This document shows positions 255 through 29,926 of a DNA stretch of 64,000 nucleotides, in pieces. Below the pieces are notes generated by a model that saw nothing but the letters and a program-made list of their open reading frames with translations, was not told where the DNA came from and searched no databases. A program made the position numbers and the translations under genes. The first letter of the stretch is position 1. Each line of letters opens with the position of its first letter. The stretch comes from a virus: the IMG/VR virus record IMGVR_UViG_3300025789_000822, positions 24,464-88,463 of that record; one strand, 5' to 3'.

Positions 255-3200
255 TTATTTAAGACCTGCTAACTTTTTCCAATCATTGATAGAATCTTTT
301 GATTCGCTGATTTGGCGATTCAATTGACTTGCAACAACTGGAATTGTTGTTTGACCAGTAGATTTTTGTTTATTCAATCCACCAGCAATAACTTTAGTCA
401 TAAAGTCAATATCTTGTTCAAAAGTAGTATCTGATACTGACTTACCAGGACCTGCATCATTTGCCCATTCATCAAGTTTCTTGTCTTTTTTATCATCGTA
501 TTCAATTTCTTTTTTGACTTTTTTGCCTGCACGTTCTGCCTTGTTGTCATCTTTACCTTTATGACCTTCGTCATATTCGATATCTTTGGCAACTTTTTTA
601 GCAGCCTTTTCAGCTTTGTCGTCTTTCTCAGCAGTTGATTCTTTACCTTCAATCATTGCTAATTTCTTGTAAAGACTTTCAAAAGCAAAAGATTCTTCTA
701 CTGCTTCTTCTTCGTCACCGCATTCGCATGGGTCTTTATGGCATGTTGGGCAAACTTCGCTTTCTTCCATGTTCTCTTCTTCAAGAGGACCTTTTTTGTC
801 TGCGATTGCCAGTGATGTGTTAGCAGCATTATTACCTTTAGTTGCATTCATTGAGTTTGCTGAACCATTGTCTGGTGGATTATCTTCTGCAACTTCGTAT
901 GCCATTTGATCTTCTGATTCAACTTCATCAACAACTTCTTTATCGCCGTGATCGCAACCGCAAGATTCATAAGCCATACCGCATTCGTTACATGCTTCTT
1001 CATCAGTGCTTTCTTCGTCAGCATAGTCTTCTGCATCATGTGAATGACTGTGATCATCGCCACCTGACATTTTTTTCATCAATGCCATCATACCTTCATG
1101 GTCATCAACAACGTCAATTTTTGGCATTGCTGGTTCAATTTCTACTGAAGTTTCGCCAGGAATTGTTGCTGGTAGTTGTTCACCGTGACCTTCTTCGTCA
1201 CCAAAGATACCTAAACCAGCTTGTTTAATGAAAGCAAGAACTTGGTCTGCTTCGCTGTCACTAGCATTGATACTTACTGAATCAGGACTACCTTCTTGGC
1301 CTTTGCTTACTGAAACTGTTAGACCTTCGTTAATTTTAGATTTGCTTTCGTTTAACAAATTGTTTAACTCTTTATCCCATGCTTCAAATGCATATTCATC
1401 AATCTTGCTGTCATGATTACTTGTATCGGTAAATGTTTTTCCACCTACCGTAAACTTGCCACCTTTAGGTGTTTTAGCAAGTGCACCAGTAAATGCATTA
1501 CCTTCTTCAACACCATTTAATTCGTTCATTACGTTACGAACCCAAGCACTTACGTCACTTGTACCAATTTCGTCTAAGCCACTTAAGTGACCACAGCAAT
1601 TTTCAACTGCTGCCATGACTTTTTCTGGGCCATGTTTTGCTAACAAATTAGGATGTTGTCTAATGATACGATTGATAACTGCACTCTTAGCGGCTTCGCT
1701 TGAATCGTGATCTTCAGTCATACCACCTGCCATTGCTTGACTTGCCATTCCTGGAGTTGTTGCCGCTGGTTGCATGCCTTCTGTTTCCATCATACCTGCA
1801 CTACTCATGCCATAACACTCATCTAGGCCTTCTTTGTAGCCTTGATGATAAGCCATGCACTCGTCCATATCTTCATAGTTCTTACCACAATGTGGATGAC
1901 CTTTTAATCCATGTGCTTTACCTTCTAGTCTTGCTGCCATGACTTTGTGATTAGCACTTTCTTTAACTGCTTTTTTCTTTTTATCAGCGGCAGCTTTTTT
2001 CATTGATTCTTTTTTGTCGCCATCTTTGTCTAAGTCAATATAATCTGGCTTAGCTTTTTTGCCTTCATTTGTAGGTTTACCCATAGCACCTATTTGACCA
2101 CGATTATTACCCCAGAATGTTTCAGTCAACATTAACAATATTGTTCCAACCATGATTAAAAGTTCACCACCGCCACCAAAACCTGCCATACCAGTTAGTG
2201 CAGAACCACCAATTGCTTGTGCGGCGCCTGCGCCAAGACCTACTACGTGTAATAGTTGAAGCAATTTACCTTGCCAGTTGCCTGCTAAACCTTCGTTGAC
2301 TGCGGCTTGTGCTGGCGCTTGTTTACCCATTTTATCAAAGCCAAATGCTTGTGCCACTTTCAATGCATTTTCTCTGCTAGGAGTAAAATCACCACCTGTA
2401 ATTTGTTTTACTTTAGTTGCAATCTCTTGTACAGGTAAAAACTTCATTACTCTAGGTAAAATTGATTTGATCTTATCCATCATACCTTCGTCTATACGTG
2501 TCTTATGCATTGTTTTCATTTTGCTTTCAAAAGCGTTAGGATTACGGACGGCGCCTAAGTTTGCGCCTTCTGTGTCAATACCTTGAGTTGAAGCAATATC
2601 TGCCTCTTTGATTTTCTTCAATTGCGAACCTGCGATGCGTTTTGCTGCCTCTACACCATACTTAGGTGTTAGTTTACGAACCAATGCATCAAAGCCTGTT
2701 GTAGCATTGTTATGTTTGCCTATATCTTTTTCATCCAACTCTTCTTCAGACATAGGTTGTGTTGTACCTTGTTGAGTTTGTTGACCTTGTTGAGGTTGTT
2801 GTGTTTGTTGTTGACCTTGTGGAGTAACAACTGAAAGTTTCTTTTGTTGTGCTAAGTTATTGATAGTGTCATTTAAAGCCTTACCTGCAGGGCTTTGATC
2901 ATTTACTGTGATCATACCTGTAGTAGTTGCTTTGTTACTACCTTGTTGCATTACTGGAACTGGAGTAGGTGTTTCGTTGATAAGTTCTTTATCTAACTGC
3001 TCAAACCAGTCTTTTAGTGTGTGCTTTTTAGTTTTGCTTTTGTCATATGCAGGTAATTTAACATCTTTACCATGCTTAACACCAAATGCTGAGAAATCAT
3101 ATTTCTTTTCTTCACCTGTTTCAGCATCAGCATTTTTCTTAGGACGACCACGACCACGAGGTGCTGTATCTTGTTTGACTTTTTTGCCCTCTTCATCTTC

Positions 3201-3314
3201 ATCATCTTTACGACCATAACCACCTGGCTCAGCAGTGTGAATACGACCTTTACCAGTCTCTTTTGTAGCCTCTGATAACTGGCTGATCTTTTCTAACATG
3301 TCTTTGAAATTCAT
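255..3314 (-). CDS. Putative modular internal head / prohead core polyprotein
   Basis: 1019 aa, acidic/low complexity, many (I/L/V/M)-x-E junctions, AT-hook-like RGRGRPKK, EF-hand-like DLDKDGD, Cys clusters, C-terminal WKKLAGLK. Confidence 0.55.
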   Translation of the reverse strand: MNFKDMLEKISQLSEATKETGKGRIHTAEPGGYGRKDDEDEEGKKVKQDTAPRGRGRPKKNADAETGEEKKYDFSAFGVKHGKDVKLPAYDKSKTKKHTLKDWFEQLDKELINETPTPVPVMQQGSNKATTTGMITVNDQSPAGKALNDTINNLAQQKKLSVVTPQGQQQTQQPQQGQQTQQGTTQPMSEEELDEKDIGKHNNATTGFDALVRKLTPKYGVEAAKRIAGSQLKKIKEADIASTQGIDTEGANLGAVRNPNAFESKMKTMHKTRIDEGMMDKIKSILPRVMKFLPVQEIATKVKQITGGDFTPSRENALKVAQAFGFDKMGKQAPAQAAVNEGLAGNWQGKLLQLLHVVGLGAGAAQAIGGSALTGMAGFGGGGELLIMVGTILLMLTETFWGNNRGQIGAMGKPTNEGKKAKPDYIDLDKDGDKKESMKKAAADKKKKAVKESANHKVMAARLEGKAHGLKGHPHCGKNYEDMDECMAYHQGYKEGLDECYGMSSAGMMETEGMQPAATTPGMASQAMAGGMTEDHDSSEAAKSAVINRIIRQHPNLLAKHGPEKVMAAVENCCGHLSGLDEIGTSDVSAWVRNVMNELNGVEEGNAFTGALAKTPKGGKFTVGGKTFTDTSNHDSKIDEYAFEAWDKELNNLLNESKSKINEGLTVSVSKGQEGSPDSVSINASDSEADQVLAFIKQAGLGIFGDEEGHGEQLPATIPGETSVEIEPAMPKIDVVDDHEGMMALMKKMSGGDDHSHSHDAEDYADEESTDEEACNECGMAYESCGCDHGDKEVVDEVESEDQMAYEVAEDNPPDNGSANSMNATKGNNAANTSLAIADKKGPLEEENMEESEVCPTCHKDPCECGDEEEAVEESFAFESLYKKLAMIEGKESTAEKDDKAEKAAKKVAKDIEYDEGHKGKDDNKAERAGKKVKKEIEYDDKKDKKLDEWANDAGPGKSVSDTTFEQDIDFMTKVIAGGLNKQKSTGQTTIPVVASQLNRQISESKDSINDWKKLAGLK

Positions 3315-3334
3315 AATGTGTCGTCCTTAATTAA

Positions 3335-3955
3335 TTAAACCATTGCACCAGTCTTTGGTTTAGGTGGCATTTTAATTTTAGTCATGGGACTCATGTCACC
3401 TAATCGTTTATCGTCTAAGTATGGTTTGAATGGGTCAAATGCGTTTGGAGTTTTCTTTCCATCGTATTGATATTCAATATTTGAATCTTTTGCTTGATCC
3501 TTGATACTGTCTAAGTATGAACCAGCATATGCTTTACTTGCAGCCTTTGCGCCTGCTTCTGTTTCTTCTTCATGAGTTAGCACAGGGCTATTTTTCATTT
3601 GATTAGCATATTGTTCTGCTTCGCCATTGATACTGTCATCATATGCAGAACCAATAACTCGTACCATATTCAAGTTGTATCCTAACAACTGTGCCATTTG
3701 TTGAATCATTGGCTCTGTTGCAGGATAACGGAATTTGCACTTAAGAATAGTAATTGATTCATTGTGAAGATCAGGGAATCCATATGGATCCTTCTGAATG
3801 GGCGTGCTTGTTGGCGCTGAGATTTCTACAGGATCAAACTTGTTTAGATTATGTTTGAACATTTCCAACCAGTTTTTATCCACTTCACCAGCGATCTTAA
3901 TAGTGTAATCATATGTATGTACACTTTCAACGATATATTGTTTGAGGCTCTTCAT
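3335..3955 (-). CDS. Putative head-associated protein
   Basis: 206 aa; N-terminus MKSLKQYIVES resembles T4 capsid-targeting sequences; TAAATA upstream. Confidence 0.5.
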   Translation of the reverse strand: MKSLKQYIVESVHTYDYTIKIAGEVDKNWLEMFKHNLNKFDPVEISAPTSTPIQKDPYGFPDLHNESITILKCKFRYPATEPMIQQMAQLLGYNLNMVRVIGSAYDDSINGEAEQYANQMKNSPVLTHEEETEAGAKAASKAYAGSYLDSIKDQAKDSNIEYQYDGKKTPNAFDPFKPYLDDKRLGDMSPMTKIKMPPKPKTGAMV

Positions 3956-3981
3956 AATTTAATTCCCGTATAATATATTTA

Positions 3982-4464
3982 TCATTTAGTCTCAGTTTTT
4001 GCGCTGAGAACTCTAAGCAGTTCGTTGCGATCCAAAGACTTGCCTTCACCTAACGGGGTGTTTTCTATTTCTTCTGATTTAGCTGCCTGACGTTGATCCA
4101 ATGCGGCTTTCTTTAGTTGCAAATCAATCATCTTTAATTTTTTATTTAGTTTGGCAGTTTTTGCTGTGATTGCGTGTCCTAATAGATTACTAGCAACACC
4201 AAAGATTTCGCTACTAAATCTACTATCTACTTGCATACCTAAATCCATTAAATCTTTATAACTGCTTGTTGCTAGGTTGGCTAGTTCATCCATTTCAGTA
4301 TCAGCGGCTTCTAGTCCTCTGACTTGGGGTAATGCTGTTTCAATTTTTTCTAGATTACTAAGTGCTTCTGTAGTAATTTCTTGTGCAAATTCGGGGGTAG
4401 GCTTCGCCAAAGTGCTTATAACATCTTCAGGAAGCTCAAATAATTCTTCTAACTTTTTTGTAAT
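3982..4464 (-). CDS. Hypothetical coiled-coil late protein; probable ATT start at 4464
   Basis: Frame is open upstream of the track's 4410 start as ITKKLEELFELPED; AAGGAG lies 7 nt before the ATT. Confidence 0.6.
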   Translation of the reverse strand: MTKKLEELFELPEDVISTLAKPTPEFAQEITTEALSNLEKIETALPQVRGLEAADTEMDELANLATSSYKDLMDLGMQVDSRFSSEIFGVASNLLGHAITAKTAKLNKKLKMIDLQLKKAALDQRQAAKSEEIENTPLGEGKSLDRNELLRVLSAKTETK

Positions 4465-4465
4465 T

Positions 4466-5050
4466 TTAATTCTCCTTAGTAAACCATGTACGTTTACCGT
4501 TGACTAATTTCCATGATTTACCACGATTAGCATCACCGCATTTTAATGGATCACTTTGAATACGAATTCTGCGCTGTTCTTCTGCTAGGATTAAAGCTGG
4601 CGTTTTGGTTTTCTTTTTTCCTGTCATTCCTAATTTCATTTTTTCAATTCTTTCAGGAGTCCAACTAGCTTCTGAACTGCAAGAATTTTTTACAAAGTTT
4701 GATACCTCTTCTGGGGTCATTTTTGCTAATATTTCTTTTCTAGAATTACTTAATTTTTTTCTAGATTCAGTTGACCATGCACCACCGGGGCCAGCTTCCT
4801 CTGTTAAGTTAGCCCATTTATCACTTTCAACTACATTCCACAACTTACTATAATGCAATCCCCAATGAATCAATTCTTCTTCAGATTGGCATTCTTTAAT
4901 AATTTCAGTAGTTACATCATTCCCGTGTACTTTTAGATGATTGGTCCAATATGTGCCGGACCCAAGATATTTGTACGGATCTTTTGATAAAGTTTTACCT
5001 AGATATTGTAATCCGGTTTTATTGTGAGTCTTTTTATAAAGATATATCAT
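4466..5050 (-). mobile_element. Free-standing GIY-YIG (Seg-like) homing endonuclease gene
   Basis: N-terminal IYLYKKTH..TGLQYLGKT, YLGSG, NLT motifs; basic NUMOD-like C-terminus. Confidence 0.85.
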
Positions 5051-5063
5051 AGAAAGTATTTAG

Positions 5064-5501
5064 TTACTTTCGTGTACCATTTCTAAAAAGATCGTCCTCT
5101 GTAATAACTCTAAATGTAAATCCTTGGCTTTGACAATAGGCCATAGCCGCTTTCCACTTAGCATGATTAATAGCAACTATCATTCTGTCCTTGGCGTTTG
5201 CTACTTTGCTTTCAATAAGACTTTGTTTTTTAGGTTTTATTTCTACAACTTCTGCTATCTTTTTACCAAACTTGTTTTCATATACTACAAAGAAATCAGG
5301 AATATAATTAGTTTTTTTGCCTGTAAAGGGATGAATATAAGGAATAATCATAGATTCACTAGCCCAATATAATACATTTTTATGTGTATCACAGAAAGTC
5401 ATGAATGTTAGTTCCCAACCTGAACGATATCTAGGCTTATGTTTGCCTATGTATTTTTGTGGTTGAGTGGGAGTAAATTGACCTTGTGCAAATCTAGCCA
5501 T
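5064..5501 (-). CDS. Head completion nuclease (T4 gp4-like, TnsA-like PD-(D/E)XK)
   Basis: KYIG..PRYRSGWE..F..FCD, WASE, YIPDF, EIKP, NHAKW motifs. Confidence 0.85.
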   Translation of the reverse strand: MARFAQGQFTPTQPQKYIGKHKPRYRSGWELTFMTFCDTHKNVLYWASESMIIPYIHPFTGKKTNYIPDFFVVYENKFGKKIAEVVEIKPKKQSLIESKVANAKDRMIVAINHAKWKAAMAYCQSQGFTFRVITEDDLFRNGTRK

Positions 5502-5502
5502 A

Positions 5503-5871
5503 TCATAACACTACATTTCTTTGAACTGCTTGATTGGGTACAGGGATATTACCGGTACCATACAACGAGGCTTTGCTTCTAAATGTGTTCAGATAATAGC
5601 ATAATGCATTGCTGGCTTGTAATGTATTGTTTGAACCCTGAACTGCTTCAAGTAATTGTTGTACAGGGATGTTGGCTTGTTGAGCAATAGAAAAGAATAA
5701 TGCAGTAAAGTTTGCCGCAATAGTATTATTATCGCTAACGCCCTTAAAGTATGAAAATACCAAGTCATACTCTCCACCGTTAACGTGCAATGTGGTACTG
5801 TAAAAATTATCAAAAATTCTTACAGTTTGTGAGATATGATCTCTTTCAGATGTGATATTTGTATTAGCCAT
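5503..5871 (-). CDS. Hypothetical protein (tail region)
   Basis: 122-aa ORF, TAAATA-N5-ATG. Confidence 0.6.
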   Translation of the reverse strand: MANTNITSERDHISQTVRIFDNFYSTTLHVNGGEYDLVFSYFKGVSDNNTIAANFTALFFSIAQQANIPVQQLLEAVQGSNNTLQASNALCYYLNTFRSKASLYGTGNIPVPNQAVQRNVVL

Positions 5872-7209: not shown

Positions 7210-7842
7210 TTACTGACCAATACCAGTTACAGAATCACCTGTTTGACGTTGTACACCTGGCGTACCAACACCAGAACCAAGTGGCGCTTGAATTGCGTTA
7301 TCAAAACGTAATGTCAATGCAACTGTTACTGCATCGCTTGTGCCATAGTTCAATGTTTGATAGTTAACTTGTTGAATATAGCACCCATACAATTCCCATG
7401 TTTCTAACACAGCAGGAACAGCAGTGCCGTTACCACCATCAAGAATTTGAATGTTAGTTTGGAATTTATAATCTTGACCAGTAGCTGCTGATGCTTGTTC
7501 AACAAAGTCAAATTGTTTCTGAATTTGTGAACCAACTGCAAGTGCAACGGTACCAGATGCATCATCACGAATGTTGATTGCAAGTGTCTGCCATTTTGGT
7601 TTACCTGCTAGATACATTGTTGAGTTATATACGTTTAATGTAATATCGTCAAATTGTACTTGCGGTCTTGCGCAATCGATAACTTGTTTAGTCAAACTTA
7701 GACCCTGTGTTGCGCTTGCACCAAAATTTAGAAAGTCAACTCTGAATCTAAATTGTAGTTTAGGCATCAACAGACCTTGGTTGCCGCCTGATGTATCTCC
7801 TGCGACTGTCATGTTGAACAATGATTGTGAGGCTGTTGCCAT
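7210..7842 (-). CDS. Tail tube protein (T4 gp19-like)
   Basis: 210 aa directly after the sheath; YLAGKPKW..IRDD, WELYGC, LTLRFDNA. Confidence 0.85.
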   Translation of the reverse strand: MATASQSLFNMTVAGDTSGGNQGLLMPKLQFRFRVDFLNFGASATQGLSLTKQVIDCARPQVQFDDITLNVYNSTMYLAGKPKWQTLAINIRDDASGTVALAVGSQIQKQFDFVEQASAATGQDYKFQTNIQILDGGNGTAVPAVLETWELYGCYIQQVNYQTLNYGTSDAVTVALTLRFDNAIQAPLGSGVGTPGVQRQTGDSVTGIGQ

Positions 7843-11673: not shown

Positions 11674-12030
11674 ATGATTAATAGACCTATATGCAACACA
11701 TGCAATAAAAATTACTGTGCCGTCAACTATAAACGTGACGGAGTGACGCATTATAGAAGTATATGCGATAGTTGTGGTAAATTAAAAACAAAAAAGAAAC
11801 CCAGAATTAGTAACTGGGAACGTGCAGGGTATAAAAAGAAAACCACATGTGACTTATGTGGTTTCAAAGCATTATACACTACACAAATCACCGTGTTTCA
11901 TATTGACGGTGATTTGACTAATGTTAACTTTACTAATCTACGTAGTGTGTGTCTTAACTGCATTGAAGTAGTTAAGAAGAAAGAAGTTAACTGGAAGCGC
12001 GGAGATTTACAAGTTGACTATAGACTCTAA
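11674..12030 (+). CDS. Zinc-ribbon / degenerate HNH protein
   Basis: CxxC pairs and VFHIDGD..N...NL..VCLNC; TAAATA-N4-ATG. Confidence 0.6.
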   Translation: MINRPICNTCNKNYCAVNYKRDGVTHYRSICDSCGKLKTKKKPRISNWERAGYKKKTTCDLCGFKALYTTQITVFHIDGDLTNVNFTNLRSVCLNCIEVVKKKEVNWKRGDLQVDYRL

Positions 12031-12703: not shown

Positions 12704-13498
12704 TTACCCTTGAATCCATGTCAACGGTTGACTGTAATCAACATATCGTTTCAATTCGTCAATTAACACTTCTTGTGCTTTAGAGCCTTCTGCTTTCATG
12801 GCAGTACCGTTCAATGTTGTGCCGCCACCCGGACCTGCAATGCTGCCGAACTTCTCACGTGCTTCACCAATAATAACTTTACATTGTGCTAAAATAAAGT
12901 CACCGATCCACACACCAGCGCCTGGGTCTTGTAGTAACACTGCTTCAGGGCGTTGCACATCTGCCCAAACAAGAATACGCTCACCTGAACCCTTGAAATC
13001 ACGTGTAATTCTAAGAACCTTAGTAACAGGATCAAATGTGTATGTCAAGAACCCACCAAACATACGTGCGGCTAATTCAACATAACCTGCATAAAAGTCA
13101 TATGTTGCCATACCACCTGTATAGTTATAGTTTAACAAATATGTGTTAAGAATAGCACTACTGAATGGGTCAAAACTGCTTGAACTTGGACCTGTTTCAA
13201 GACCAATACTACGTCTGAATAATTGTCTAACGTTAATAAATTCTTGAGGCAATGTGTAAGTGTCCACATTCTCAACAACTGTCATTAGTGTGTATGATTC
13301 TTGTGTGGCATTTTGTGCACGTTGACGATATACTTTGATAGCATAGTTATATGCGGCCTCATAATGCTCAGGATCAAGTTCCAAATCAATAATACCACCA
13401 CCTAAACGATAAGTGATGTTATTAAATAATGCTTGTTTTAATTCTTCTAAGTTATAACTAGTTGGTGTACTTAAATAACTGGCTGTGCTACTTGGCAT
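12704..13498 (-). CDS. Neck protein (T4 gp13-like)
   Basis: RLGGGIIDLEL, GEAREKF..IAGPGGGTTLNG..MKAE motifs. Confidence 0.75.
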   Translation of the reverse strand: MPSSTASYLSTPTSYNLEELKQALFNNITYRLGGGIIDLELDPEHYEAAYNYAIKVYRQRAQNATQESYTLMTVVENVDTYTLPQEFINVRQLFRRSIGLETGPSSSSFDPFSSAILNTYLLNYNYTGGMATYDFYAGYVELAARMFGGFLTYTFDPVTKVLRITRDFKGSGERILVWADVQRPEAVLLQDPGAGVWIGDFILAQCKVIIGEAREKFGSIAGPGGGTTLNGTAMKAEGSKAQEVLIDELKRYVDYSQPLTWIQG

Positions 13499-15885: not shown

Positions 15886-15914
15886 AGTATACAGCATATC
15901 CGATTTATTGTCAA
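15886..15914 (-). promoter_or_regulatory. Early sigma70-type promoter (TTGACAATAAAT class)
   Basis: TTGACA-17 nt-TATACT. Confidence 0.8.
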
Positions 15915-15949
15915 GCCGTTTGATCCAAAAAATTTCGATAAATAACTAT

Positions 15950-16024
15950 ATGCTTACTGATTCTAAATATAAAAAATGGTACTTCTCTATTAAATTGGCT
16001 AAAAAACTAGCCGTAGGAGTTTAA
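15950..16024 (+). pseudogene. 24-aa remnant of a probable HNH homing endonuclease
   Basis: MLTDSKYKKWYFSIKLAKKLAVGV; KY.KWY.SI resembles phage HNH N-termini; sits on TAAATA-N5-ATG and ends 1 nt before the next gene. Confidence 0.5.
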
Positions 16025-16025
16025 C

Positions 16026-17780
16026 GTGCCTAGGCTCAGCCTATACCGTCCAACGAAACAAAATGACTATCGATTTATGGATAGAACCATATCCGATATG
16101 TTAACTGCAGGTGGCACAGACTTATATATTCACAAATATCTAGGTCCTACTGATCAGGGGCCTAGTACTGACCCTACACAGCCACAGTATGCAGTTCAAA
16201 GTCCTACTAATATTCAAGACTTGTTATTCATGGAAAACCGTGATAGAACATATGATCCAAATATCTATAGATTGCGCGGGCATTACAATGTACAAAATCT
16301 TGACTTTGATTTAAGTCAGTTTGGTTTATTCTTAAATAATGATATCATTTTCGTCACTGTGCATTACAATGACATGATTGACATTATTGGTCGCAAATTA
16401 ATGGTTGGTGATGTATTAGAGTTACCTCACTTACTAGATTATAATCCATTAGATCAAACTATACCAGTTGCATTAAAACGCTTTATGCAAATTACTGATG
16501 CAAACTATGCAAGTGAAGGTTTCACACAAACATGGTACCCACATCTATGGCGTATCAAATGTGAACCTCTTGTTAATAGTGAGGAGTTTTCAGATATTCT
16601 TACACAACCTCTCAATCAAGACAATTATCTTGGTAACTGGGATAAGACAAAACCTTATCCAGAAGGCTATACTGTTACATTTGGTGGATTGATTTATAAA
16701 TCTTTGGCAGATGTTCCTGCAGGAACATATCCACCAAACGCAACATATTGGCAATTACAATCAAACGGTGGCCTTGCAGATATCATTTCTACATACAACA
16801 AGAATATTGCAATCAATGATGCTGTACTTGCTGATGCAGAAATACTTGTTCCTAAATCAGGTTACGATCAAAGTCAACTATATGTTGTACCTACATACGG
16901 CGAGTATGTTACCAACCAAGAAGGTAATACAGTTCCTTCAGGTCATTTGAATCAACCTGCACCACCTATCGGTGTACTTGCTCCTAATCCATTCGCAAAC
17001 TTCCCCAATATACCATCTCAGTTAGATGGCGCAAAGGTTGTAATATATCGCAATAGTAAGTTCAAGAATCCAAGTGTTGGTATTAAGGTTAGTAAGGCTG
17101 CATTAGCAAAACTACAAGACATGAATGGTGTCGGCAAGTATGTAGAAAATAAAATCAACAAACTTGTACAAGCACAATTATCATTAGCAGAGCAAGAACC
17201 TGAAAAGACAGCAGGTGGTAGTGGTCGTGTTGATAAGATTAAGATTCTCAAAGTAGAAACAATCAGTCCTATCATTATTGGACCATATGGTACTGCTGAC
17301 AACACATATGCTACAGCAGACCAAGACCCAAGTCTAGATAGTTTCACAGGAACGGTGACAAGTGTTATGGACTTTAGAGCAGACTGTGATCCAACATTCC
17401 AGTTTATCTCTAGATCGGCTCCAAGATCATTTGGTTATACAACTGGCTACATGACTGGTGATGGTAGTGCTCCAAATGGATTCCCAACAGGCGCAGGTAT
17501 TAGTTTCCCTGCAAATCCTACAGTGGGCGATTATTTCTTACGCATCGATTACTTACCTCAACTATTATATCGTTGGGACGGTAAGTTATGGATACAAATT
17601 AGCCAAAATGTCAGAACACAAACTGGATTTGGTAGTGTTGAAAATCAATCACAACTCTCATCATTTATTAATAACGATGCTCAAATTTATGTAAATAATG
17701 ATCAAGCAGTAATTCCTCAAGCACAACCATTGTCGAATGTACTACAGAATTCACCACCGACACTACCGCCGGTAATATAA
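16026..17780 (+). CDS. Neck/head-closure protein (gp14-like) with extra domains
   Basis: FDLSQFGLFL, GDVLELP, WRIKC motifs; precedes a gp15-like gene; GTG start. Confidence 0.65.
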   Translation: MPRLSLYRPTKQNDYRFMDRTISDMLTAGGTDLYIHKYLGPTDQGPSTDPTQPQYAVQSPTNIQDLLFMENRDRTYDPNIYRLRGHYNVQNLDFDLSQFGLFLNNDIIFVTVHYNDMIDIIGRKLMVGDVLELPHLLDYNPLDQTIPVALKRFMQITDANYASEGFTQTWYPHLWRIKCEPLVNSEEFSDILTQPLNQDNYLGNWDKTKPYPEGYTVTFGGLIYKSLADVPAGTYPPNATYWQLQSNGGLADIISTYNKNIAINDAVLADAEILVPKSGYDQSQLYVVPTYGEYVTNQEGNTVPSGHLNQPAPPIGVLAPNPFANFPNIPSQLDGAKVVIYRNSKFKNPSVGIKVSKAALAKLQDMNGVGKYVENKINKLVQAQLSLAEQEPEKTAGGSGRVDKIKILKVETISPIIIGPYGTADNTYATADQDPSLDSFTGTVTSVMDFRADCDPTFQFISRSAPRSFGYTTGYMTGDGSAPNGFPTGAGISFPANPTVGDYFLRIDYLPQLLYRWDGKLWIQISQNVRTQTGFGSVENQSQLSSFINNDAQIYVNNDQAVIPQAQPLSNVLQNSPPTLPPVI

Positions 17781-21384: not shown

Positions 21385-21430
21385 GTATTTATCTTTATTG
21401 CGTAAAATAATAGACGCTCTAAATACAAGT

Positions 21431-22375
21431 ATGATTAAAGAATACGGATATCGCTATACTGCAACTCAATCGATTGCAGACCACGAACACAATTGGTTAG
21501 AAAAATTCAAAATAGAATTGTCTGCAAATGAATATCAAACTAATTTATTAATTAACCTCACTTGGCTAGAACCTAAAGACCCTAACTTATTGCAATGGAT
21601 TAAAGATAACATCGAAGGTTCTACTAAAATTTGGCTTGCAGGGACTGTTGACGGCACTGAATGGTTTACACATACATTATTATATGCTGATATAATAGCA
21701 TTAAATTATCCTTTAGAGTTTGCAGGATTCAGTCCTACCCAATGGAGTTCTTGGATGCCCAAATGGTTGATGGAAAATAAACAATATACTGATAATGAGT
21801 TGCAGTTGAATAAAAATTTTAGTAATGTCTATTTGAGTTATAATAGAAAACCTAGACCACATAGAGAACGATTAGTAAACCAACTTATTGATAATAACTT
21901 AGATAATAGGGGTTGGATAACATACGAAAAAAATGTTTTTCCTAGTATCGACCAACGTACTGCTATCACCGATCAGCAATTACATTCTACTGATTTAAGA
22001 TTTAGTAGACCTGAAGACCTTACAAGTTTAGGTAATTTAGATGTTTGGCAGAATAGTTATTGTGTTATTGTAAGTGAAACTGAACCAACTGACAGCTGGC
22101 AATTATCAGAAAAGACTTGGAAGCCTATTATGGGTTTAAGACCTTATTTGTGGAATGCAAACAAGGGAATAATTGAAGTTGTTCGTAAATTGGGATTTTA
22201 CACACCTAATGATTTGTTTGATAATCCAAATTTAGATAACAGCACAGAATCAGTAATCACACAGTTAAAAGTATTATGTGATATGTCAAATTTTGAATTG
22301 TATAATCTTTGGCAAAAACAATTGCCTATGCTACAACACAATCGCCAAAGATTTATAGAACTTGCTAGTAATTAA
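21431..22375 (+). CDS. Glycosyltransferase-like protein
   Basis: SYNRKPRPHR, IVSET, LSEKTWKPI motifs; TAAATA-N5-ATG at 21431. Confidence 0.5.
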   Translation: MIKEYGYRYTATQSIADHEHNWLEKFKIELSANEYQTNLLINLTWLEPKDPNLLQWIKDNIEGSTKIWLAGTVDGTEWFTHTLLYADIIALNYPLEFAGFSPTQWSSWMPKWLMENKQYTDNELQLNKNFSNVYLSYNRKPRPHRERLVNQLIDNNLDNRGWITYEKNVFPSIDQRTAITDQQLHSTDLRFSRPEDLTSLGNLDVWQNSYCVIVSETEPTDSWQLSEKTWKPIMGLRPYLWNANKGIIEVVRKLGFYTPNDLFDNPNLDNSTESVITQLKVLCDMSNFELYNLWQKQLPMLQHNRQRFIELASN

Positions 22376-22955: not shown

Positions 22956-25900
22956 TTAGAGTCTACCAATTGCCACTTCAATGACACCTTCGCCTTCGTG
23001 GTTCTCTAATGCTTTACCAATGATTGTTCCCATTTGTGGTGTAAGTGTTGGTCTTGCGTAGCCATCGCCACCGCTAATTAGCATATCACCCTTTTTAATG
23101 CTTCCGCGTACCTTAGTTGGTACACGTCCTTGTAGAGCAATAGCAACTGCGATGCCCGAACATGTTGAATTCATAACATAAGCAGGGTTAGTAGACACTA
23201 CGCCGGCAACTCTAGTTGTACCATCTTCTGCAACAGTAACTTCTTTCTCACCGCCAAATTCTAGTACGGTGCCCGGTTCATACTCTTGATCTGCTTCATA
23301 ATACTCAGCCAAGTCAGCATATGTTGCTTGTAGTCTTGAACCTGTAGTCAATGTCCAATTACCGGTGAATGTTGCAGCCGTTGTATTTGATCCTGCATTG
23401 ATAGTAGTTATACCATTCAATGTAGTGATATTGTTTTGTACTGCACCTGTTACGATTGTAGCATTGTTAGCATTTGCAATTGCTGTGTTAGATAATGCAT
23501 AATTAGCTGCCGCAATACCACCTAAGTACAATGAGTTGTTAGCATTAGCAACGGTACCTGTTACATTAGCACCTGTGATTGCTGTTAGTGAACTGCCGGT
23601 ACCGGTCACTAGTAAATAACTTGCTGCTGCTGTACCGCCTAAATAACTTGAGTTATTTGCACTAGCTACTGTTCCTGATACATTAGCACCGGCTACAGCA
23701 TTTGCTGTTGTTGCATATGCTACCGCACCACTTACATTGGCGCCTGCTACTGCATTGGCAGTAGTTGCATAAGCCACTGCACCTGATACATTAGCACCGG
23801 CTACTGAGTTAGCTGTTGTTGCATAAGCAACGGCACCACTTACATTAGCACCTTGAATGTTACTTAAATTATTACCGGCTCCATAATGATTACCTGTTAA
23901 GTTGGCTCCTGATATGTTACCTGTAACTGCAAGTGAAGTTAATGTGCCAACACTTGTAATATTGGGTTGTGCATTTGTATAAACTGTACCTGCTACTAGT
24001 GCGTTACCTACTTGACCTGTGACATTTGCACCAGTAATTGAACTTAATGCACTACCATTGCCACTTACGTTAGCCGCACTAACATTACCGATAACACTTA
24101 AATTAGTAAGTTGACTTAAGTTGCCTGTATCTGACAAATCAAAAATAGTTGTAGTGTAACCACTATTAACAATCTGTAAGTTACCTGAACTGTTTAATCT
24201 GAAATATTTGTGTGGATTAGTTGCGCTGACATTACTATTAGTCATAGTAATCATGCCAGCATAACCCGAGCCACCGTGACCATTGTTATTAGTAATAATA
24301 ACTTCACCGTTTGATGTTACGTTGCCATTTGCAACGAATGCACCACCGTATGTTAATGGGCCTGTGCCTGCACGCCCTAATGATGTAGTATCACCGTTAC
24401 CAAAAATGATATAAGCATTAGCACCAGAACTTTCGATACCTGATACTTGTAATGTGTCTACTACATTAACATCACCAATCCAAGCATCATCACCAACTTT
24501 AAAGTTTGTACCATTACCGTTATTGGTAGCAATAACTATTGAAGCGGTAATTGTACTTGCTACTCCTAAATTAACACCTACGTTTGCATTGCCGGTGATA
24601 TTGATATTTGTAGTTGATAAATTGCCTGTTGCAGCGTTGAATGATAAATTAGCATTTGCATATTCTGCAACATTTCCTGTTGTTGCATTCGCTAACATCA
24701 AATATGAAGTACCACTTGAAGTCGTAGTAATATTAGCAAAGTCTGTTACATTAGCGTGTCCAACATTCAAGTTAGGAACACGTGTAGTTGATGTTACAAT
24801 TAATGGTGCAGTACCTGTTGCAATATTAGAAACAAAATAACTTGCAGAGATTAAATTACTAGCAGCTATATTATTAGAACTAATGTTACCGCCAGTAGCG
24901 CCGCCACTTAAAACTAAACTGCTATTGTTTTGGTCATATGTAAAATTAGCACTACCTGCTAACAAATTATTGTTATTAAATTGAACTGAATTTGCAGCTC
25001 CTTGTGCTCCGTTGCTACCACTGCTACCACCAATTGAAGAAATTGCACGGCCGCCTTGTCCATAAACAGTTGCTGTTAAACCACTTGTAGTTTGTAATGG
25101 TAATATAGGACCTGCTGTACCGTTTGGATATAATGAATTTGAAACAGTAATCGTAGTAGCACTAGGGATACTGTTGATGTAATATGTTGTGTTTGCTGTA
25201 AGACCACTAGTAGATAAACTACCCAAGAACACAACAGGTTGATTTACTTCAAATAATACGTTAGCATTAGCAACTGAGTTACCAATGTTAATTACGTTTG
25301 TTGCTACAGTGGTAGCAGTAACATTATTGCTGTATGAATATGCTGTATAAGTAGAAGTGTTGACAGCATTTGAAAAATCAGAAGTGTTATAAAGAGCAAA
25401 ACTATTTGAAGTTTGTGCCTTTACATAGAAATTACCACCGTTTAATGCATTACCAATACTACCGGCAATATTAGGTGCACCTGTTATAGTGATGACAGAA
25501 CCATTGGTAAAATAGTTATTCTGTGTAGTAGTTACTACTGTTAAGTTTCCGGCGGTAGTATTTCCGTTACCTATCTTGATGTTCTGAATATAGGCAGTGA
25601 TTGATGTTTTGGGTGTCCATGAAAGATTACCCAACCCGTCAGTTTGTAATACATAACCAATAGCGCCGCCTGCAATAGTAACATTACCTAGATCACCTAA
25701 GTTAATATTGCCACCTGCATTACCGCCAGCATTTATCCAGTTAGTACCGTCAAAAGCAAGAACTTGTCCTAACCCAACGTCAACTGGGTTAATATTTAAG
25801 TTACCAACACTGCCATCGATTTGACTAAAACTTATCCCTGAATAAGATGTTAATACTTCGATGTTTTCATTGGGTGTTGTTTTACCAATGAATAGACGTT

Positions 25901-29468: not shown

Positions 29469-29908
29469 AGTACCTCAAAATGAATGTTTTTAAGTTCCGG
29501 TGTTATGTCTAAAAATGCAGGAGTTACATCATATTGACCTTTGCATTTAATCATCGGTACACCTTCACAGTCTGTGTATAATGCCCCTAGGGGAATTATT
29601 CCGTTCTCAAATACGCTTGGATGTTGAATTTCAAATTCAAACTTCCAAACTGAGTATTTCTTATCTTCTTCTTGTTCATAAAAGAAACCAAATTGATCAA
29701 ATTCATCAAAACGTATTTCTGTTTTATAAGGTACTTTAACTACTTCAGGTTGACTACGTAGTGATATTACTTGTAGTATGGTGTCATAGTTACATTGTGT
29801 ATTTCTATCATGTATCCATGATTCTACGTTGTCGCCCACAGGCTTAGACCTGTTCATTACTCCTGTTTGAGTAATATCAAAAAGCGTATAACAACATATG
29901 CGGTACAT
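29465..29908 (-). CDS. Hypothetical protein
   Basis: Start moved to ATG 29908 (TAAATA-N5-ATG). Confidence 0.6.
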   Translation of the reverse strand: MYRICCYTLFDITQTGVMNRSKPVGDNVESWIHDRNTQCNYDTILQVISLRSQPEVVKVPYKTEIRFDEFDQFGFFYEQEEDKKYSVWKFEFEIQHPSVFENGIIPLGALYTDCEGVPMIKCKGQYDVTPAFLDITPELKNIHFEVL

Positions 29909-29926
29909 AATGTTATTTAGAGCCAT

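Follow-up and report, generated by a model that had tools for sequence, protein, structure and literature searches.

Background

The closest described systems are the free-standing Seg and Mob endonucleases of T4-like phages (segG with gene 32, segA, segE, mobB, mobC and mobE), promoter-less cassettes that join existing host transcription units (PMC2988022). Their overlapping start and stop codons suggest translational coupling, and the promoters of an essential downstream gene can be embedded in the endonuclease coding region, an arrangement that has been argued to favour retention (PMC2988022). These proteins combine GIY-YIG or HNH domains with modular DNA-binding domains, and their intronless homing is accompanied by co-conversion of the flanks (PMC2988022). 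In the 'genes in pieces', coding regions are the sites of insertion: mobE lies in nrdA of the Aeromonas phage Aeh1 and mobA in gene 39/60 of T4 (Friedrich et al. 2007, via PMC2988022). The present study deals with a homing endonuclease gene found in a stretch of 64,000 nucleotides (hereafter the window; positions 24,464 to 88,463 of the IMG/VR virus record IMGVR_UViG_3300025789_000822), where it separates a head-completion gene from a conserved late gene. We consider it probable that this cassette took the promoter and the ATG of a leaderless gene and gave the host gene a Shine-Dalgarno (SD) sequence and an ATT start that travel with the element.

The mechanism that we propose is the following. 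A free-standing cassette would have inserted at the first codon of a late gene in an uncultured freshwater jumbo myophage. Its open reading frame (ORF), beginning at the host ATG, would inherit both the promoter and the start, and its 3' end would serve as a rebuilt initiation region made up of AAGGAG, 7 nt including the stop codon, ATT and the intact host frame. The late RNA would then carry two cistrons, the second of which encodes the host protein; initiation at its AUU would be aided by the perfect SD and probably also by the ribosomes that terminate 1 nt upstream. The SD-ATT junction would itself be part of the mobile unit and be co-converted with the endonuclease during homing.

Architecture of the insertion

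All the genes near the insertion are encoded on the minus strand. The upstream neighbour is a gp4-like head-completion (head-closure) gene of 145 aa (5064..5501; PF08722, E 4e-19; phrog_218 'head closure', E 6e-44), which ends with a TAA at 5066-5064. One base past this stop lies a TAAATA that resembles part of a T4 late promoter (5057..5062), followed by the 6-nt spacer CTTTCT (5056-5051) and by the ATG (5050-5048) of the 194-aa endonuclease ORF (4466..5050, TAA at 4468-4466). The 3' end of this ORF reads ACT AAG GAG AAT TAA, so that its Lys-Glu codons make up the AAGGAG (4472..4477) that would be the SD of the displaced gene. Seven nucleotides separate AAGGAG from the ATT proposed as the start of that gene (4462..4464), which stands 1 nt past the endonuclease TAA, at the position of the ancestral ATG. 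The ATT shares its frame with a TTG located 18 codons downstream (4408..4410) and the extension reads ITKKLEELFELPEDVIST-LAKPT.... Counted from the ATT, the displaced conserved late gene codes for 160 aa (3982..4464, minus strand; phrog_16202); the mechanical ORF caller had started it at the TTG (MAKPT...), which we reject as the true start. Every sequence statement of the initial annotation about this anatomy (TAAATA, 6 nt and ATG; AAGGAG-N7-ATT; the 18-aa extension) is correct, on the minus strand.

The source phage is represented by a freshwater metagenome-assembled fragment of 88 kb. Its estimated completeness of only about 23% implies a jumbo phage, and its distant cultured kin are PA5oct, RaK2 and the 121Q-type jumbo myophages; at the DNA level, the search among GenBank phages gave just two weak matches, both to the head-completion gene, and no close cultured relative. 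The origin of the window in such an incomplete assembly could suggest that the arrangement stems from an error of sequencing or assembly, or that it represents a pseudogene in the course of decay. Yet, contigs from two other freshwater runs span positions 4238-5126 and 4112-4547 with zero differences from the window, so the endonuclease junctions are not an assembly error, and 13 other distinct alleles, obtained from many samples, show the same architecture. The probability of an artefact or of a dying gene seems negligible. No joint skipping the endonuclease was found in the contigs of four runs, although contigs drop rare variants and this result does not imply that such joints are absent. 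The record of the window, about 23% complete, contains a single copy of this endonuclease.

The insertion had also been described as one that does not splice, and this view is upheld. The non-ORF sequence that flanks the endonuclease gene amounts to 13 nt on one side and 1 nt on the other, and a search of Rfam (E<=1) over positions 3800-5700 gave no intron match. A group I intron or another kind of splice was rejected on account of this missing match and of the lack of room for an intron core. An RNA hairpin hiding the SD, such as those of T4 endonuclease genes, was also looked for: the fold of the 111-nt junction (z = -0.99) is not distinctive.

Endonuclease-free alleles and the probable leaderless start

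The 160-aa target protein was used to scan IMG/VR, which yielded 573 relatives, and the best 80 of them were analysed. The codon aligned with the ATT of the window is an ATG in all of these 80 endonuclease-free relatives, and their protein begins with MT(K/R)(K/R)LEELF.... The head-completion gene lies directly upstream of the target in about 70 of the 80, and PA5oct has the same neighbour. A typical empty flank reads ...CGAAAG TAA C TAAATA CTTT(C)T ATG ACA AAA AAG, and several relatives (for instance L008) equal the left flank of the window base for base up to the ATG, which bears out the proposal that the element was inserted at the ATG of its target. The endonuclease ORF thus begins at the codon which serves as the start of the target gene in other phages. 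As delimited by this alignment, the inserted segment extends from just past the ancestral ATG to the ATT.

After duplicates were collapsed, the empty alleles provided 27 distinct 20-nt upstream sequences. TAAATA is found 4-6 nt ahead of the ATG in 26 of them, the spacings of 8-9 being due to the left copy of a doubled TAAATAAATA. None of the 27 has an SD-like 4-mer between -16 and -4, and AAGGAG is absent from all. This corresponds to the empty allele that the initial annotation had predicted, namely TAAATA-N5/6-ATG-ACA-AAA. The homologues start at MT..., upstream of the MAKPT position, and have no SD of their own.

The TAAATA agrees with the 3' portion of the late promoters of T4, which have the consensus TATAAATA and from which transcription starts about 6 nt downstream. 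The arrangement TAAATA-N5-ATG occurs 8 times in the window for an expectation of 2.0, a number that no shuffled sequence out of 100 reached. The upstream regions of the window that contain TAAATA, including those of structural genes, can be split in two classes. In the first, TAAATA is followed by a leader of 19-25 nt with AGGAG, GGAG or AGGA; this is the case of the tail tube gene at 7842 and of the genes starting at 13498, 15856, 22929, 28946, 60726 and 3955. In the second, represented by at least seven genes (5050, 5871, 11674, 21431, 27849, 57086 and 58654), an ATG follows TAAATA after 4-6 nt and there is no SD. Within this class, the genes at 11674 and 21431 are located at strand switches, where no co-oriented upstream ORF could feed ribosomes to them. 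This distribution suggests that TAAATA is a late promoter which gives rise to mRNAs that are leaderless or have a 1-nt leader, and that a leaderless late mRNA is the most likely template for translation of the target gene in the empty alleles.

Alternatively, the target gene of the empty alleles might be reached by reinitiation after translation of the head-completion gene, whose stop lies 1-13 nt upstream, and TAAATA might be conserved for other reasons. The distance between this stop and the ATG (10-13 nt in most relatives) would allow such coupling, and in PA5oct the stop is just 1 nt from the ATG and overlaps the TAAATA. Nevertheless, the bases around TAAATA vary from flank to flank while the motif itself stays at 4-6 nt in 26 of 27, and the same SD-less TAAATA-N4-6-ATG heads the genes at 11674 and 21431 and those related to a 584-aa gene described below, all of them at strand switches. 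Furthermore, the loci that have other insertions between the two genes retain TAAATA-N5-ATG directly at the target. Reinitiation after the head-completion gene thus seems unlikely, and the leaderless start is the interpretation retained here.

The same motif bears on annotation. The mechanically called ORF starts are wrong at 29908, 21431, 4464 and 16026 of the window: the listed start at 29926 is preceded by a terminator-like hairpin and TAAATA-N5-ATG sits at 29908; similarly, a TTG at 21398 is listed for a gene whose TAAATA-N5-ATG sits at 21431. ORF callers therefore mis-start displaced genes (as at TTG 4410) and several leaderless genes, and non-AUG starts are affected likewise in this phage group.

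Occupied alleles and the proposed AUU start

Occupied alleles were gathered by searching IMG/VR and the JGI metagenomes with the C-terminal tail of the endonuclease. Including the window, 24 distinct occupied junctions were recovered, 14 with ATT and 10 with ATG at the start of the displaced gene. The 14 ATT alleles all read AAGGAGA-NNN-AAA-ATT-AC, AAGGAG-N7-ATT being invariant. Their endonuclease stop is placed either 1 nt ahead of the ATT (AAT TAA A ATT, AAA TAA A ATT, ATT TAA A ATT) or 2 nt past it, in which case it overlaps host codons 2-3 (ATT CAA AAT TAC TAA). The codons that form the SD are AAG GAG in 14 of 14 ATT alleles, versus a background of 16% AAG and 15% GAG (the neighbouring codons of these alleles are AAA 53 and AAG 10 for Lys, GAA 23 and GAG 4 for Glu). 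Such invariance against the codon preference indicates that selection acts on the nucleotides themselves and maintains a strong SD at a fixed spacing. The 10 ATG alleles have variable SD tails (AAGGAA-N5, GGAG-N5, GAGG-N7, AAGGAG-N5/6), often with an ATGA overlap. From these junctions, the combination of a perfect SD with ATT and of a relaxed SD with ATG is what would be predicted if the SD compensated for a poor initiator.

The N-terminus of the host protein stays (I)T(K/R)(K/R)LE(E/Q)L(F/L) in the ATT alleles despite many synonymous changes, which shows that the stretch past the ATT is translated. The ATT is also the only conserved candidate start; the other in-frame ATT, GTG or TTG codons found upstream occur in single alleles. 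We infer from these alignments that AUU is decoded as the initiator of the displaced gene.

Two other ways of reading the junction were considered. One of them is that the insertion truncated the gene, which would now start at TTG 4410 (MAKPT...), with the stretch between ATT and TTG as an untranslated remnant. No canonical start occurs earlier in the frame than this TTG. The TTG, however, is not preceded by an SD, and the other ATT alleles do not have any canonical in-frame start near its position. Moreover, the 18 codons in question are kept as protein in every relative and show synonymous variation across the 14 ATT alleles, which come from very different phages. A truncated protein is on these grounds very unlikely. 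The other is that ribosomes shift to the +1 frame in a programmed manner as they reach the end of the endonuclease (AAT TAA A), similarly to those on prfB, and produce a fusion of the endonuclease and the host protein. The host frame is the +1 frame of the endonuclease and the window has an SD-like AAGGAG ahead of the stop. However, no slippery site is kept among the alleles (AAT TAA, AAA TAA, ATT CAA AAT TAC TAA, ATT TAA) and several of them have a TAG in the host frame 6 codons upstream. The spacing also differs: in the prfB frameshift 3 nt separate the SD-like element from the shift codon, whereas here the SD abuts the would-be shift codon. A fusion protein seems still less credible than truncation.

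Initiation at AUU could in turn take place in more than one manner. Recognition of the AUU may be restricted to ribosomes arriving from the end of the endonuclease ORF, so that host expression depends on endonuclease translation. The proximity of the endonuclease stop to the ATT in 14 of 14 alleles (1 nt ahead or 2 nt past) is congruent with such obligate termination-reinitiation, as is the distribution of damage: the endonuclease ORF is intact in 13 of 13 ATT alleles in which it is complete, and the scars described below were found only in ATG or GTG alleles. Nevertheless, an invariant perfect SD at the optimal spacing argues for direct SD-guided initiation, and the comparison of 0/13 with two scar types among 10 ATG alleles involves numbers too small to establish a real difference. 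Obligate reinitiation is thus a possibility that we regard as a minority one; it refines the proposed capture of the start codon and does not contradict it.

Mobility of the junction

The full-length endonuclease closest to that of the window at the same junction, in L081, is 53% identical to it (47% for the target protein), and 18 nt of the junction (AAGGAGAATTAAAATTAC) are identical in both. AAGGAG-N7-ATT is also present in phages whose target protein is 44-51% identical to that of the window, and the same tail and junction are found on HNH nuclease domains (PF01844, NUMOD3). In a tree of the target protein reconstructed without its first residue, the ATT label requires three changes, and the target of the window nests among the empty alleles L001, L054, L034 and L003. 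The presence of ATT with both GIY-fold and HNH domains, and in at least three places of the host tree, indicates that the ATT moves with the cassette. The claim that the element itself supplies the ribosome-binding site and the ATT is thereby strengthened, as their junction is shared by GIY-type endonucleases of 53% identity and by HNH-type endonucleases in distant hosts.

The HNH and GIY-fold endonucleases have the tail NRGKTWKL.DGKR.W in common (L167-L170, L181-L184, L186, L191). They are the result of a domain swap on a shared DNA-binding tail aimed at a single target.

A mosaic stretch is visible in the target gene of the window, in its first ~60-100 nt (4370-4464, minus strand). Over the first ~60 nt, the identity to the clade-mates is 50-63%, while it reaches 88% with L006 and 75% with L008, both of which are otherwise more distant. 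The remainder of the gene is 80-97% identical to L001 (85-97% beyond ~100 nt). This pattern is indirect evidence for a co-conversion tract left by homing.

The 5' side of the insertion is more diverse. In the window, the endonuclease begins with M-IYLY... directly at the captured ATG. Other alleles fuse the first 4-5 host codons to the endonuclease (MTQKLS-LYKK in L081, MTRK-IYLY in L190, MTRK-FYLY in L192). The HNH alleles retain the old start in a mini-ORF of 7 codons, MTKKLEV* (ATG ACG AAG AAA CTC GAA GTT TGA), which is followed by a second TAAATA-N5-ATG ahead of the HNH gene. These junctions fit a general plan in which TAAATA-N5-ATG with 0-6 host codons is followed by the endonuclease and then by an SD, an ATT or ATG and the complete host gene. 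The 5' end of the host gene has been rebuilt downstream and not preserved in place.

The endonuclease

The 194-aa ORF was assigned by PHROGs to phrog_314 'homing endonuclease' (E 6e-10). An AlphaFold model based on 33 family members (pLDDT 82 overall, >90 over residues 1-89) predicts a nuclease domain with the GIY-YIG fold for residues 1-89; the C-terminal half is made up of helical modules (residues ~94-162) and of a beta-hairpin tail (residues 178-191, NRGKSWKLVNGKRTW) which is common to all the endonucleases at the target site. The top match of the model in Foldseek is the catalytic domain of I-TevI (prob 1.0, TM 0.67). The same domain was retrieved by VIA with a Z of 9.2 and an rmsd of 2.4 Å over 86 residues, the next matches being UvrC N-domains and PD-T4-3 (Z 3.8-5.6). 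Sequence and profile searches of the PDB with the endonuclease gave no match.

The family has the pattern IYLY...YLG...GSG..W..H...WAN, in which the motif-like IYLY (residues 2-5) and YLG (16-18) are invariant; H38, E49/E53, N81 and E85 are also among the invariants, and all the family-invariant residues are kept in the endonuclease of the window. Arg27 of I-TevI would presumably align with the residue ahead of the invariant Trp35, a variable position that is Tyr in the window and Arg in several other members. On the predicted structure, the nuclease domain is best described as a divergent branch of the GIY-YIG nucleases assigned by its fold. The initial annotation had called this gene GIY-YIG; the name holds as far as the fold is concerned (Z 9.2 to I-TevI) and fails at the level of the Pfam profile.

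The same N-terminal domain is numerous in freshwater phage contigs, with several copies per genome, and the family is widespread and intact. Ahead of the members L082-L160 there is a conserved element ~40 nt upstream of each endonuclease ATG, CCCAACTACTCTAAYGCT...AAGGAGCATCAGC-ATG, which may be a family-specific promoter, an operator or a regulatory RNA. At the target site, 80 empty alleles versus 24 distinct occupied ones constitute a presence/absence polymorphism at one codon, with no intron. This polymorphism marks the gene as a free-standing (intronless) homing endonuclease gene. The predicted activity of its product is the cleavage of the empty allele.

Several observations weigh against the interpretation put forward here. 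Regarding the enzyme, the GIY-YIG family of Pfam (PF01541) gave no match even at E<=10, and the family has no invariant Arg, while the catalytic residues of I-TevI are R27, E75 and N90. Regarding the leaderless start, the homologous ATG of PA5oct is only 2 nt past a TAAATA that overlaps the upstream stop, and some relatives may rely on coupling to the head-completion gene instead of a leaderless RNA. As for the ATT, the 14 alleles are statistically non-independent, as inheritance and transfer both involve the whole cassette. A look for RNA runs that contain this stretch found none. Finally, AUU is a poor initiator in the bacteria in which it has been studied (infC, pcnB).

Scars and retention

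Remnants of endonucleases were found at the target site. L171, L172 and L193 have lost an internal part of the gene, so that 43 N-terminal codons are followed by a stop, and the last ~90 nt with the SD and the ATG are intact; L198-200 have an additional nonsense mutation. A second scar is located elsewhere in the window (15939..16028, plus strand), where TAAATA-N5-ATG opens a 24-codon ORF that precedes the 584-aa gene. The N-terminus of this ORF, MLTDSKYKKWYFSI... (SKYKKWYFSI), resembles the HNH endonucleases of the target site, and its end reads GTA GGA GTT TAA, with the GTG start of the 584-aa gene 1 nt further on. The position of this GTG is occupied by ATG in 80 of the 80 relatives examined, most of which have TAAATA-N4/5-ATG in a divergent intergenic region. 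Judging from these sequences, decay removes the middle of the element and keeps both of its ends, as is expected if the ends carry the promoter and start and the ribosome-binding site and start of the host gene. The suggestion that the element would become hard to delete finds support of an indirect kind in these scars. The reasoning is similar to that advanced for the promoters embedded in the seg and mob genes of T4 (PMC2988022).

Upstream of the 584-aa gene, a TTGTCAA(G/C)C motif is conserved ~20-35 nt ahead of TAAATA in many relatives (L205-L283), and at ~15905-15920 in the window. This motif may act as a binding site or as an additional part of the promoter.

As noted above, no damage was seen in the 13 endonuclease ORFs of ATT alleles whose contigs include the whole ORF, and scars were found solely in alleles with ATG or GTG. 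If coupling to the endonuclease were obligate, the AUU start, which initiates poorly by itself, could act as a translational 'addiction', with an essential gene expressed only through the SD of the cassette and the ribosomes that terminate 1-5 nt away. We hold this idea to be doubtful. If it were true, a nonsense mutation, a frameshift or a deletion in the endonuclease would deprive the phage of a packaging protein that it cannot do without; phages with an open selfish ORF would accordingly be favoured, which would slow down the decay phase of the homing cycle. The G-to-T change from ATG to ATT may also have removed a base needed for self-cleavage.

The displaced gene and its insertion hot spot

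The displaced gene is found throughout this phage group, after the head-completion gene. Homologues are present in the PA5oct, RaK2 and 121Q-type jumbo phages, always past the head-closure gene, and that of PA5oct lies three genes ahead of the large terminase. One GenBank record names a homologue small terminase, and the neighbours of the protein in the ESM Atlas carry PF11053 (gp16 family; feature score 0.97, TM 0.49-0.50). Searches with the displaced protein gave no match in Pfam and nothing in a PDB profile search, and an hhalign comparison of a 21-sequence alignment with T4 gp16 was not significant (probability 0.08%). The gene is probably a small terminase of the T4 gp16 type, an assignment that should be taken as a lead.

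Endonucleases of other, unrelated lineages, both HNH and classical GIY-YIG, also occupy the intergenic region at the target site (L029:3263-3997, L072:3339-4004, L078:3306-4004, L001:3744-4004, L132:117-710). They share a different, HTH-like tail (...SWDRVKYIL...) and are inserted upstream of the promoter; they carry TAAATA-N5 within their own last codons, so that the target keeps its leaderless ATG. Other cargo found between the head-completion and target genes includes ORFs of 383 aa (L015:2502-3653) and 399 aa (L017:2776-3975), as well as an ORF of 262-263 aa on the opposite strand (L006/L011, ~3120-3910). The site between these two genes is a general insertion hot spot.

Comparison with known systems

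In the current view, homing endonuclease genes survive in gene-dense phage genomes within self-splicing introns or inteins, or between genes with borrowed or embedded promoters; the present locus would represent a third route. The borrowing of host promoters, overlap with neighbouring genes, embedded promoters and the splitting of genes have all been described in T4-type phages (PMC2988022), and what differs here is the insertion at the start codon of a probably leaderless gene. In the literature we found no report of an endonuclease that had captured the start of a leaderless gene or provided a gene with an AUU start, most subscription journals being outside the coverage of that search.

If confirmed, the locus would offer a concrete mechanism for the retention of a selfish gene, and a family of conserved AUU starts beyond infC and pcnB. 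The 14 ATT and 10 ATG alleles, together with the scars, form a natural replicated set in which the strength of the start codon is traded against that of the SD. They come with sequence evidence that the T4-late-type promoters of a large group of freshwater jumbo phages often yield leaderless mRNAs.

Natural AUU starts are found in infC and pcnB of Escherichia coli, and that of infC serves the autoregulation of a cellular gene. As in these genes, the rare AUU described here is kept by selection together with an SD, and it would be expected to be weak and sensitive to IF3. Contrary to that of infC, it belongs to a mobile element and stands in for an AUG that would have been translated without a leader. 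I-TevI, from the td intron of T4, is the best fold match of the endonuclease and likewise combines a nuclease with DNA-binding domains and has a late promoter directly upstream. Yet it is encoded in an intron and its SD is sequestered by a hairpin, whereas there is no intron at the present locus and the similarity is too low for sequence searches of Pfam and the PDB.

The locus resembles the seg and mob genes of T4 in that the cassette lives on a host transcription unit, embeds host signals and joins modular nuclease and binding domains. Nevertheless, those cassettes lie between genes and embed promoters, while this one sits on a start codon and embeds an SD and a non-AUG start. The closest parallel for an insertion in a coding region without intron or intein, in which translation of the downstream part starts separately, is provided by mobE and mobA. 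In their case, the protein is split in two parts that reassemble; here, the host protein loses nothing, as its 5' codons are rebuilt downstream, and in some of the present alleles the first 4-6 host codons still stand upstream, either as a mini-ORF or joined to the endonuclease.

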